Source: a virus
Taxonomy: Duplodnaviria; Heunggongvirae; Uroviricota; Caudoviricetes
Direction: 5' to 3' (one strand)
IMG/VR virus record: IMGVR_UViG_2802429219_000008
Length of the DNA stretch: 21,425 nt
Shown: positions 1 to 9,464 of the stretch, piece by piece
How the letters are laid out: the number at the start of each line of letters is the position of its first letter
Position numbering within the stretch: the stretch's first letter is position 1
Translations under genes and position numbers: made by a program
The notes under the pieces: generated by a model
The model's database searches: none
Seen by the model: the letters and a program-made list of their open reading frames with translations, nothing else
Told to the model about the DNA's origin: nothing

Positions 1-93
1 GACTGGTTGCGCGAAGTGATCGTGAAGCTTAATGACTGGCCGTCAAACCGTGTGCATGAACTGCTGCCCTGGAACTGCTCAACTGTAAAATAA
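1..93 (+). CDS. 3' end of an unidentified gene entering from upstream of the window (partial)
   Basis: Frame 1 is open from base 1 to TAA at 91-93 (...DWLREVIVKLNDWPSNRVHELLPWNCSTVK*). Convergent with the 97..327 gene. No family recognised. Absent from the ORF track because there is no start in the window. Confidence 0.2.
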   Translation, partial: DWLREVIVKLNDWPSNRVHELLPWNCSTVK

Positions 94-96
94 TCC

Positions 97-327
97 TTAC
101 GCTACGTACTTCTCGGGGCGCTTACGTTGCATGCAGGAATATTCACCGGAAAGAGGCCAGTCAGCGAATATCTGGTGAAATCGCCTCACCAGAGAAAAAA
201 TGGCGGTTTTGCTGACACCAGTCTGCGCAGAAATGCGCGGGTACGACAGTGACTCGTCAAATCTCAGCTGTAGCACACGCAGGATCAATTCCGGATTATC
301 TGCCAGTACCGCCTTTCGTGCATTCAT
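97..327 (-). CDS. small helix-turn-helix protein (76 aa), function unknown; possibly a truncated regulator
   Basis: ORF track 97..327(-). AAGGA Shine-Dalgarno 8 nt upstream of ATG (aaaaggacatttaagATG). Residues ~14-50 (PELILRVLQL...ISAQTGVSKTAIFSLVRRF) look like a TetR-type N-terminal HTH, but the protein stops at 76 aa. Confidence 0.4.
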   Translation of the reverse strand: MNARKAVLADNPELILRVLQLRFDESLSYPRISAQTGVSKTAIFSLVRRFHQIFADWPLSGEYSCMQRKRPEKYVA

Positions 328-395
328 CTTAAATGTCCTTTTACTGCGAAAATGGACATTAGTATCGGAAACAGGAAAGGGAGGCGAAAGACGGT

Positions 396-785
396 TTAAA
401 TGATGCGCTTACGATTTTTTTCACCGATTATGCTCAGGATATTTTTGATGACGGCACGGTATGTGTTGAGTGATGTTTTGGCGACTTCAGTTTCTTTCAG
501 TGCCAGAAATTTTTCAGCCAGTTCTTTTATGGTTAAATCTTGTCGGGCCTCACCAAATTTTTCCAGATTGCGTGAGGAGGGAAACTGTTTTGCATAGTCG
601 AAAACACCAGTTTTTATTGCGTAACAAACAGAGGAGCGTAGTTCACCTGCAACGCGCCTGTTTTTTGCTGTGTCAGGAACCCCCAGATTTTCCCTGACTC
701 TTACGCCTTTATAAACAAACCAGATACGTAATTTCCCTCCATGGTTTTCCACGCCTGTCGGATATTTCATTTCAACTTCTCTCAT
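396..785 (-). pseudogene. tyrosine integrase, N-terminal fragment only (129 codons; arm-binding region, no catalytic domain)
   Basis: ORF track 396..785(-): MKYPTGVENHGGKLRIWFVYKGVRVRENLG... is a typical N-terminus of lambdoid/P4-type integrases. TAA at 396-398; the downstream frames contain no R..HxxR..Y catalytic domain. Sits directly downstream of xis as expected for int. Confidence 0.6.
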
Positions 786-804
786 TAGTTAGTGTGGCTT
801 TTAG

Positions 805-1056
805 TCAAGTAAGATGACGTCTTGGTCTCGCTGATGCCTGGCGCTCAATCCAGCGATCAATTTCTTCCAGGTTGTAAAAGCATGGACTGTTATCCCATGG
901 CATACCGTCATGAGCGACATGCTTATATTCCCTTCCTTCCATAAACGATTTTTCCCGGGCCTTTTTTAACGTACCTTTTTTTATTCCTTTCAGCGCAATT
1001 AACTGCTCTTCGGATACCCATTTGCCGGGAGAGACAATCATGATTACTTCGCTCAT
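805..1056 (-). CDS. excisionase-like protein (DUF1233-type Xis)
   Basis: ORF track 805..1056(-), 83 aa. Small protein immediately upstream of int on the same strand. The REYKHVAHDGMPWDNSPCFYNLEEIDRWIE segment resembles the putative-excisionase family. Start could instead be the ATG at 1039-1041. Confidence 0.55.
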   Translation of the reverse strand: MSEVIMIVSPGKWVSEEQLIALKGIKKGTLKKAREKSFMEGREYKHVAHDGMPWDNSPCFYNLEEIDRWIERQASARPRRHLT

Positions 1057-1128
1057 CGATTTCTTTATCTCTTACATCAGACGAGCGCCGGTTGCAGAAT
1101 ACCAGTCACAACCGGCGACAGTTGAACA

Positions 1129-3600
1129 TTAAGAATCAGCCTGACTCGGGATCAGTTTTTGCCAGATAACTGAAACGTATTTTGCCTGGTAACGGGCGTC
1201 ATCAAGTGCATTATGGCGCTCACCTTCGAATGGAATAGCCGTTCTGGCATCGAAGTCTATGGCTTTCCCCAGCTCAACGATTGTGCGTACATCGCGATCG
1301 TTGTAGTAACGCCACGGGCAGGGGATCCCCTGCCGTTCGTATGAACGGCGCAAAATCGTGTTGTCGAAGTTGGCTCCATTTCCCCAAACCTGAACAAAAA
1401 ATTCACCGGAGTTTTCGTCGATAAATTCCCGCAATTGTAACAGTGCATCATCTAACGGGATTTCATCGGTCATAATGGCAGATTGCGCTTCGCGTGATTG
1501 CTTAAGCCACCATTTAATGGTGTCCCGATCAATGACTCCGCCAGCAGTTTCCAGATCGATAGTCTTACTAAATTCCGGTCCCATATCTCCGGTTTGCGGA
1601 TCGAAAAATATTGCACCTATTGAGATGATCGGGGCATCAGGATTTTTTCCCATGGTTTCAAGGTCGATCATTAGATGGTCACACGTCCTGCTGGTGGATG
1701 TGATTTCGTGATGACCGTTCACCTTAATTGGGTGATCTGCCGTCTCGCCAGTTTCATTATCGCTATTGTGATGCTGATTGCCGCCAGTGTTCTCCTTGTG
1801 TGGATGTTCAGCGCCTTCCATTTCCTCCGGATCATCTTCCTGAACTTCAACCTGATACTCTTCATCGAATGTTTCTTGGTATGTTGCGTCGCCCATCACC
1901 GCGCCACAATCAGGGCAGTTGCCGCCGCCGGTCTGACCGCAGGCGGTGCAGGCTTTTTCCACTTCCTGTTGCGCCACTGGTTCAGGCTGTTTCGTTTCTG
2001 GCTCGTTTTGTAACGCATTTGGACTGTTTTGTTCCGCTTTTTGGTAGTTCCGTTCCGATTCATGCTGGTTCTGGTTCACAGAATCGCGGGTCTGGATCCC
2101 CTTAACCCATTTCGGATCATTCGGGTCACTAATCCCTTCAACAAATTCACCACGTGATGCAGCAAGCAACTTATCGGCGTCAGGCTGGCTGATATTGGCT
2201 GTCTGCATAATTTTGTTTACTTCGTCAGCGGTAACTTTTATCGGCTCTGGTTGTTCTGAATCTTCAGCGGTATCTACATTTTGCGGTAAGCCCGTGTATG
2301 TGCCATTTTTTCGGGCAAAATATTCTTCTTTTGTGATTTCAGTGGCGCCAGCAGCCAGTGCCTTATCCAGACCAGAAAGTTTGTTTGCGCGACCGTATTT
2401 TTCTCCGTCCTTATCTGCGAAGAGGAAATAGAACGGCCCCTCACGCTCTACAGATGGTTCAGCTTCCGGCGCGGTTTCATTTTTTGGGATATCAGATACC
2501 TCAGTTTCCACTGCATCAGTTTGTGTTTCTGATGACTGGAGAACATCAACAGTGCCCAGGTCTGTTTCTTCATTCTCAAACACGCCCTTTGTCGTCAGGT
2601 ATTCGCAGATATATTTGTTCAGTGCTACGGGATCTTTGTGAATGTCGATCGGACGCTCACGGACAAGGCCAAAAATAGTTTGGCGGTCGTAGCGAAGGGC
2701 ATCAGGCTGTTTGCGCATTGATGCCGAGATACGCTTCCAGTCTTCGCGGTCGTTGTCGATAACTTCTTTTTTTGCCCAGCGATGGATGCTGCCGTCAATG
2801 TTTCCGGCATCCACATCACCAGGCCAGAGAGCGTAGGCCAGTTCGTCATCCAGTGTTTTCCATGTCTGCTTGTATTCGCGATGAATGGCAGCAATGACCG
2901 GGCTGATTTTTCCTGTTGAATTTTCAGTGTACTGTTGATTGGCTCTGGCGCGGGCGAGATCAGCAACAGACGTGTATTTTCCGGTTTCCTTGCGTTCACC
3001 TTCGCGACGTTTTTTCCAGATGCGCATCTCTGCCTGAATTTCGGGCCATTTAGCACCAGGAATACATTTATGCTTAACCCACCCAATGGCGTGCAACTTA
3101 AGCTCCGGATACATGGCGTTAACTTCTGGCATTTTCATCAACGCTTCAACGATATGTCCGTCGAATGTTGCCATGTCTTCCTGCAACAATTCCTGTGCGC
3201 TAATAACCATATCAACGGTGATGTTTTCACATGTGTCGAACTTAACCATGACAGCGTTCTGTACTTCAGGGGCCAGCTTGTCAAAAGTGACGTTCATCGG
3301 ATCGGATTCAGTCTCAACCGGGACAAAAGAAGCAGACTCCTCATCCCAGCGGTTTTCCTGCATATATTCAGCATCCCATGAATCGAGGGCAGGGCGGGGT
3401 ATGCCAGGTTTATCCTCGCAGACAATAAATTTATAAGCGCAGTCCTGAGCAGCCGGATAATGTTCCAGGAATTGCCAGTGAAATTTTGCTCGAGCACGGC
3501 GTTCGTCGCCAGCTTCAATGGCTGTGGCTACAGCCACAGCGCCTTCTTCCCTTGTTGCCAGTTCGTCAGGAATAGCGGCGCAAATAAAGACTTTACTCAT
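1129..3600 (-). CDS. RecE-like exodeoxyribonuclease VIII-type protein with C-terminal DnaQ/DEDDh 3'-5' exonuclease domain (ydfE-like)
   Basis: ORF track 1129..3600(-), 823 aa. GAGG Shine-Dalgarno upstream of ATG at 3600. Central acidic/Pro/Gln-rich low-complexity linker. Motif DKLLAASRGEFVEGISDPNDPKWVKGIQTRD as I recall it from RecE. C-terminal domain has Exo I (MIDLETMG), Exo II (VWGNGANFD) and Exo III (ERHNALDDARY) motifs. Confidence 0.85.
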   Translation of the reverse strand: MSKVFICAAIPDELATREEGAVAVATAIEAGDERRARAKFHWQFLEHYPAAQDCAYKFIVCEDKPGIPRPALDSWDAEYMQENRWDEESASFVPVETESDPMNVTFDKLAPEVQNAVMVKFDTCENITVDMVISAQELLQEDMATFDGHIVEALMKMPEVNAMYPELKLHAIGWVKHKCIPGAKWPEIQAEMRIWKKRREGERKETGKYTSVADLARARANQQYTENSTGKISPVIAAIHREYKQTWKTLDDELAYALWPGDVDAGNIDGSIHRWAKKEVIDNDREDWKRISASMRKQPDALRYDRQTIFGLVRERPIDIHKDPVALNKYICEYLTTKGVFENEETDLGTVDVLQSSETQTDAVETEVSDIPKNETAPEAEPSVEREGPFYFLFADKDGEKYGRANKLSGLDKALAAGATEITKEEYFARKNGTYTGLPQNVDTAEDSEQPEPIKVTADEVNKIMQTANISQPDADKLLAASRGEFVEGISDPNDPKWVKGIQTRDSVNQNQHESERNYQKAEQNSPNALQNEPETKQPEPVAQQEVEKACTACGQTGGGNCPDCGAVMGDATYQETFDEEYQVEVQEDDPEEMEGAEHPHKENTGGNQHHNSDNETGETADHPIKVNGHHEITSTSRTCDHLMIDLETMGKNPDAPIISIGAIFFDPQTGDMGPEFSKTIDLETAGGVIDRDTIKWWLKQSREAQSAIMTDEIPLDDALLQLREFIDENSGEFFVQVWGNGANFDNTILRRSYERQGIPCPWRYYNDRDVRTIVELGKAIDFDARTAIPFEGERHNALDDARYQAKYVSVIWQKLIPSQADS

Positions 3601-4240: not shown

Positions 4241-4297
4241 AAAACGGCGGCAGAGCAGTCACGGAGTAAAACTGATACCGCCAAACGTCACCAGAAA
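4241..4297 (-). ncRNA. dicF: DicF small regulatory RNA (ftsZ-targeting sRNA) with intrinsic terminator
   Basis: Minus strand reads TTTCTGGTGACGTTTGGCGGTATCAGTTTTACTCCGTGACTGCTCTGCCGCC followed by GTTTTTAAA: the DicF sequence as I recall it, ending in a GC-rich hairpin (GGCGG...CCGCC) plus U-run. Located between the ydfABC-like genes and dicB as in Qin. Confidence 0.75.
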
Positions 4298-9039: not shown

Positions 9040-9308
9040 TGGTGCAACTTCATCATCAATGAAATGCAGGCAGATGTGCACATGCTACTTAAAGGACAAA
9101 ATGTTTTGCGGGAAAAGGGAAGTTAAGTAGAATTGCTGCGGGTGCTTGAGGCTATCTGCCTCGGGCATGAACACCAAAGGCAGATAGAGAAAAGCCCCAG
9201 TTAACATTACGCGTCCTGCAAGACGCTTAACATTAATCTGAGGCCAATTTCATGCTAGACACATGTAGGTTAGCCTCTTACGTGCCGGAAGGCAAGGAGA
9301 AGCAGGCT

Positions 9309-9464
9309 ATGAAGCAGCAAAAGGCGATGTTAATCGCCCTGATCGTCATCTGTTTAACCGTCATAGTGACGGCACTGGTAACGAGGAAAGACCTCTGCGA
9401 GGTACGAATCCGAACCGGCCAGACGGAGGTCGCTGTCTTCACAGCTTACGAACCTGAGGAGTAA
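9309..9464 (+). CDS. hokD: Hok-family type I toxin HokD (51 aa); in-frame mok-like extension begins at 9252
   Basis: MKQQKAMLIALIVICLTVIVTALVTRKDLCEVRIRTGQTEVAVFTAYEPEE is recognised as Hok/Gef family. The 70-aa ORF 9252..9464 (MLDTCRLASYVPEGKEKQA + Hok) parallels MokC/HokC. Upstream leader holds a 9-bp inverted repeat (ctatctgcc / ggcagatag). Confidence 0.85.
   Translation: MKQQKAMLIALIVICLTVIVTALVTRKDLCEVRIRTGQTEVAVFTAYEPEE

Follow-up and report, generated by a model that had tools for sequence, protein, structure and literature searches.

A Qin-type prophage integrase gene, most likely cut by nested IS66-family insertion sequences, at the end of a draft contig

The integrase gene (int) at the left end of this 21,425-nt stretch of DNA, analyzed over its whole length and hereafter called the window, is of the Qin prophage type, and we put the probability at about 90% that it was cut by nested insertions of IS66-family insertion sequences (ISs), with the contig ending inside the second of them. 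The window corresponds in full to PTSA01000044.1, a draft contig of assembly GCA_002965785.1, as established by exact-protein look-ups of the 76-aa and 124-aa products described below. Reading leftward, it holds the 5′ fragment of int (413..770, minus strand), the left end of an IS679-type element (126..412, minus strand), and the right end of a second, oppositely oriented IS66-family element (1..125, plus strand). The positions of both junctions and the identity of every piece can be read directly from the window; the far ends of the two elements, their target duplications, and the 3′ half of int lie beyond it.

The int reading frame (396..785, minus strand) ends after 129 codons when counted from the ATG at 785, as originally predicted, or after 124 codons when counted from the start used by its RefSeq homologue, which corresponds to window position 770. 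This frame is chimeric, consisting of five upstream codons (MREVE), 119 int codons, and the sequence RKRII plus a stop, which is foreign to int and supplied by the IS end. The genuine int part (413..770, minus strand) comprises codons 1–119 of 426 and the first base of codon 120. A megablast search of 5,426 complete Escherichia coli genomes showed that 413..1100 is 100% identical at the DNA level to many genomes with an intact int, in which the gene encodes a 426-aa tyrosine integrase and is flanked by an excisionase gene and rspB. The identity to intact int breaks off sharply at 412/413, where the window reads ...GATGCGCTTAC followed by GATTTTTTTCACC, as opposed to ...GAGGCAA followed by GATTTTTTTCACC in the intact gene. 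At the protein level, intact Int continues with ...GEKNLASSINKE, and the product of the window ends with ...GEKNRKRII.

Alignment of the intact 426-aa homologue with the whole window by tblastn matched Int residues 1–119 to 770..414 with 100% identity and gave, for the rest of Int and in any frame, no other match better than E = 2.4. The catalytic domain with the active-site tyrosine (Phage_integrase, PF00589), which lies within residues 163–426 in Int homologues, was absent from all frames of the whole window by the same search. Pfam analysis of the 129-aa product detected the arm-type DNA-binding domain (Arm-DNA-bind_2, E 1.8e-24, residues 9–72) and only the start of a SAM-like core-binding domain. 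The original prediction that Int is reduced to an N-terminal, noncatalytic fragment in the window, with no catalytic domain in the frames downstream, is thus borne out. A sequencing or programmed frameshift in int, considered as a cause of the truncation, was rejected, since the DNA identity ends abruptly and none of the downstream frames is Int-like.

The sequence that takes over from int at position 412 is the left end (nt 1–287) of an IS679-type element of the IS66 family, including the promoter, the ribosome-binding region, and the 5′ coding part of its tnpA gene. The terminal inverted repeat of this element, GTAAGCGCATCATTTAAACCGT when read from 412 downward, begins with GTAAGCG, and the identity to int starts at the adjacent base, 413. 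Over the 287 nt of 126..412, only one mismatch (286/287 nt matching) separates the window from a complete copy of the element on plasmid p120899_76, and matches of 97 to 99.7% identity were obtained to the left ends of IS66-family elements on E. coli plasmids and chromosomes, where they fall on genes annotated in RefSeq as “tnpA: IS66-like element accessory protein TnpA.” Elements of the IS66 family encode a DDE transposase, TnpC, and the accessory proteins TnpA and TnpB, and they generate 8-bp target duplications. The p120899_76 copy conforms to this description: over a length of 2,704 bp, it has imperfect terminal repeats, left and right, that begin with GTAAGCG, and tnpB and tnpC, the latter encoding the DDE transposase, follow downstream of tnpA. 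An 8-bp sequence, GATTGCCC, is directly duplicated on its two flanks; its transposase is named “IS66-like element IS679 family” by RefSeq. By analogy with this duplication, the 8-bp target of the first element in int is predicted to be 413..420, GATTTTTT (AAAAAATC in the int sense).

This assignment changes the reading of a 76-codon open reading frame (97..327, minus strand) that had been taken for an independent, unrelated HTH gene. Its position, the 68-bp gap that separates it from the int frame, and the ribosome-binding sequence (AAGGA, 8 nt upstream of the ATG) were described correctly, but the gene is neither independent nor unrelated, being the first 67 codons of tnpA. Residues 1–67 are identical to those of the 216-aa TnpA; after the shared ...SCMQ, the window product runs into nine read-through residues, RKRPEKYVA, and a stop, as opposed to LARALF in TnpA, and the read-through residues are contributed by the second element's end. 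The “good Shine-Dalgarno” is that of tnpA itself. The 76-aa product matches the NCBIfam model IS66_access_TnpA (E 2e-20, 73 bits, profile positions 2–57 of 190). The cut-off of this model, 150 bits, is well exceeded by full-length TnpA with 286.7 bits; the stump falls below it only because just 30% of the protein is left. In Pfam, the product gives weak HTH matches. These matches and the plausible ribosome-binding site, that is, the open reading frame pattern only, are what would speak for a deletion that swapped the 3′ end of int and the prophage boundary for host DNA carrying an independent small HTH regulator gene. We give this scenario almost no credence: 126..412 belongs in its entirety, from the terminal repeat onward, to the left end of a known IS, residues 1–67 of the frame are those of TnpA and are followed by the end of another element, and the region contains no host DNA. 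An independent HTH regulator on host DNA is refuted by the IS left-end match, the identity with TnpA, and the NCBIfam match taken together.

The other element is represented by its right end (1..125, plus strand), which ends in the terminal repeat GTAAGCGCCCCGAGAAGTACGT, as read from 125 downward. Its terminal repeat likewise starts with GTAAGCG, and GTAAGCGCCCCGAG finishes at position 125, the end also being given as GTAAGCGCCCCG. Sequence 1..125 is 97 to 99% identical to the right ends of E. coli IS66-family elements, in the part annotated in RefSeq as “tnpC: IS66 family transposase.” In accordance with this, what had been predicted to be the 3′ end of a convergent gene proved to be real and is the 3′ end of tnpC, with the last 30 codons and the stop at 1..92 (plus strand, TAA at 90..92). 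These codons match the Pfam domain DDE_Tnp_IS66_C (E 3.9e-6, profile positions 15–39 of 39) with a score, computed from the 30 residues that the window has, of 27.4 bits (cut-off, 30 bits). A 2,757-bp element on plasmid pNMBU-W12E19_01 has a right end identical to the terminal repeat at 125. Because that element shows just ~70 to 77% identity to IS679, and over parts of its length only, the second element is a different member of the IS66 family. Comparison with an uninterrupted IS679 copy places the junction between the two elements at 125/126, which corresponds to codon 67/68 of tnpA. Given the 8-bp duplications of the IS66 family, the predicted target of the second element in the tnpA gene of the first is 126..133, GTTGCATG.

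A side observation concerns the neighbors of this second element. Its right end adjoins an IS679-like 5′ region in three independent contexts, the position joined being nt 287 of IS679 in the window, nt 141 in strain C10, and nt 385 on pNMBU-W12E19_01. The recurrent adjacency, seen three times in a nonsystematic sample, could reflect a preference of the second element for inserting into its relatives, or recombination.

The arrangement can be explained by two successive events. In the first, the IS679-type element would have inserted into an A-rich run at codon 119/120 of int, in the same reading direction as int; in the second, the different IS66-family element, oppositely oriented, would have landed at codon 67/68 of the first element's tnpA. 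The int frame now enters the first element for five codons and stops there; its product retains the arm-binding domain and lacks the catalytic one. The sequence comes to a halt because the short-read contig breaks inside the second element, a repeat. Both events are envisaged as simple insertions with 8-bp duplications, which would leave the 3′ half of int beside rspB.

If the double insertion was indeed simple, the 3′ half of int is expected next to rspB, at a leftward distance of 2,704 + 2,757 + 16 = 5,477 bp (~5.5 kb). The junction on the far side of int would read as the right end of the IS679-type element, ...GAGCCGCTTAC, followed by the second AAAAAATC and then by TTGCCTCATCG... into rspB. 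On the far side of the second element, GTTGCATG would stand beside the left end of that element, GTAAGCGCTCCGTCTG..., with nt 288 of IS679 and onward following. The original prediction named, as the finding that would refute it, a catalytic domain lying further left in frame, via a frameshift; under simple insertion, such a location is what one would expect, but beyond ~5.5 kb of IS DNA and not via a frameshift. In a sequence constructed according to the simple-insertion scheme, closure of the int frame comes 16 codons before L120, and M163 is the first start in frame, which yields a product of 264 aa (M163–N426). The allele of this product found in strain CP53 is present on 12 contigs, and none of the 10 listed of these 12 comes from the PTSA01 assembly. 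The closest prophage relatives have alleles with A180/F184, either with H311 or lacking it, that are present on 524 and 214 contigs, and none of the contigs listed for them (10 per look-up) comes from the PTSA01 assembly. Some of the latter entries bear the name “defective integrase; Qin prophage.” IMG/VR contained no match to the predicted far-side junction (IS right end, AAAAAATC, int).

Inactivation of the Qin-type int gene is common, and the contigs listed for the 264-aa look-up also revealed how int is broken elsewhere. In other strains, the gene is independently interrupted at nt 178, 239, 281, 312, 397, and 433, several of these breaks having recognizable IS1-type terminal sequence. One further contig diverges at ~int nt 351, in the same A-rich run as the window. 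Wherever the flank suffices, rspB follows the C-terminal part of int, which illustrates the outcome of a simple insertion. On this basis, we estimate the odds of simple insertion in the window at roughly two thirds, with about one quarter assigned to a deletion or rearrangement mediated by an IS.

According to the latter, distinctly less probable reading, the pieces are the same, but a later IS-mediated deletion or inversion, either between copies of the second element or next to one of the two elements, removed or moved the 3′ half of int together with the left att site. The second element is multicopy in the source genome, since the contig breaks in it, and the copy on pNMBU-W12E19_01 indicates that such rearrangements occur, as it has no target duplication and abuts the 5′-deleted tnpA of another IS66 element. 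Moreover, among the contigs listed, the predicted C-terminal Int fragment did not come from the PTSA01 assembly. This last argument counts for little, however, given that 10 contigs were shown for alleles that are present on 524 and 214. Both junctions visible in the window coincide with precise element ends, as in plain transposition, and together with the position of rspB in the broken-int strains, this favors simple insertion. Should a rearrangement have occurred after all, the conclusion that the prophage boundary has been lost would be right in effect.

It is very improbable that the arrangement is an artefact, either in the form of a chimeric contig assembled through IS66-family repeats or as a consequence of a sequencing frameshift in int. 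The assembly is a short-read draft, and the terminal sequence is common to IS66-family elements; nevertheless, the contig crosses 287 nt of the first element, which exceeds a typical k-mer, and the frameshift is excluded by the features of the int junction described above. In addition, a Logan assembly, SRR3988017, contains the same int/IS junction and encodes the same chimeric 124-aa product. Its 933-bp contig shows the junction independently and stops 30 nt into the first element.

Exact-protein look-ups found the chimeric 124-aa Int only in the present assembly and in SRR3988017, and the 129-aa form of the open reading frame had no exact-protein record. Neither the 412/413 nor the 125/126 junction occurs in the 5,426 complete E. 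coli genomes, as judged from megablast searches with 1..1100 and 1..430, and the exact junction pattern had no match in GTDB species-representative genomes or in IMG/VR. The junction between the two elements was seen in one NCBI contig only. A literature search on the assembly and run accessions returned nothing. Judging by these sequence comparisons, the insertion in int looks like a private, recent event of one isolate or clone.

The ends of the contig deserve attention because they determine what can be said about the prophage boundary. On the left, the contig ends 125 nt inside the second IS66-family element, and on the right, 127 to 130 nt inside an IS21 element. Breaks ~127 nt into repeats would be the expected product of a short-read assembler run with a large k-mer. 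In intact relatives, the left prophage boundary lies in the 187 bp that separate the int stop from rspB. The original prediction held that this boundary had been replaced. No such replacement can be claimed, because the contig ends before the boundary, inside a repeated IS; the sequence to the left of int consists of IS66-family elements. As the window is a complete draft contig, it allows no conclusion on the prophage ends, the att sites, or the flanking DNA beyond it.

At the right end, the region 20808..21425 contains a gpA-type gene for the large subunit of the terminase (Pfam GpA_ATPase, E 1.8e-36, profile positions 2–121 of 247). The gene is cut after ~157 residues, at ~21296–21299, by the left end of IS21, the istA gene of which starts at 21400. 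IS100 was initially considered for this position and rejected, as BLAST against an IS100 copy gave no match and the genome search pointed to IS21.

The excisionase gene xis, immediately upstream of int (805..1056, minus strand), is intact and encodes 83 aa (Pfam DUF1233, E 1.6e-31); in relatives, it is annotated as “excisionase family protein” (WP_000005552.1). It is directly followed by an intact exonuclease gene (1129..3600, minus strand), encoding an 823-aa protein with YdfE_N, YdfE_C, and Rv2179c-like domains that is named “exonuclease” or “3′-5′ exonuclease” in relatives. The gene order int, xis, exonuclease, ydfD, dicB, DicF, ydfA, dicA, and dicC matches that of annotated Qin-type relatives, and this Qin neighborhood further includes relBE and hokD. 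Rfam matches at the gathering score were obtained for the small RNA DicF (4245..4296, minus strand), for the antisense RNA sok (9140..9314, plus strand), which lies beside a hok-family gene, and for two cspA-type thermoregulator leaders (14562..15001 and 18017..18448, plus strand). These matches agree with the dicB, hok, and cold-shock genes that Qin-type prophages carry as cargo.

The cut in int and the IS21 hit in the terminase gene make it plausible that the prophage is defective. The original prediction had called it so on similar grounds; the noncatalytic int fragment and the interruption of the terminase gene, by IS21 at ~21296, are confirmed, and defectiveness is a reasonable reading of the two. 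A lambda-type Int without its catalytic domain neither cuts nor joins DNA. Therefore, the prophage should be unable to excise by means of its own integrase, and excision would be impossible unless another integrase acts in trans.

One may also ask whether the two stumps, namely the 124-aa Int fragment, encoded beside an intact xis, and the 67-residue HTH part of TnpA, with the start signals of tnpA still in place, could be expressed and act as DNA-binding competitors. We regard this as highly doubtful. If it were the case, occupation of arm sites by the Int fragment could lock the prophage in place, or the fragment could disturb the integrase of a related incoming phage, and the TnpA stump could damp the transposition of related IS66 elements.

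Disruption of int or terminase genes by ISs is a familiar path by which lambdoid prophages, Qin among them, become fixed, defective residents, and such prophages retain useful genes, such as dicB/DicF, hok/sok, csp, and lysis genes. For annotation, the left end of the window should be described as an int pseudogene with a nest of IS66-family elements interrupting it, and not as a truncated integrase accompanied by a novel HTH regulator.

Compared with the known IS679/IS66 elements of E. coli, the first element is alike in its terminal repeat, in the start of tnpA, and in 286 of 287 nt, and the second is alike in the C-terminal motif of tnpC and in the GTAAGCG repeat. Unlike complete IS66 elements, however, the first breaks off at nt 287, where it is interrupted, and just 125 nt of the second are present in the window. 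The defective intQ gene of the Qin (Kim) prophage of E. coli K-12 belongs to the same integrase family and the same prophage type, although the prophage in the window presumably keeps more genes than Qin of K-12. In other strains, int is broken at several other positions, whereas the IS66-family insertion at codon 119/120 described here is seen in none of the 5,426 complete genomes. Nested ISs are also known from the ends of short-read contigs, and the position of both ends of the window, ~125 to 130 nt into multicopy ISs, is the usual signature of a break in a repeat. Overall, the anatomy is a familiar one, since IS-inactivated prophage integrases, nested ISs, and defective Qin integrases are all known already.
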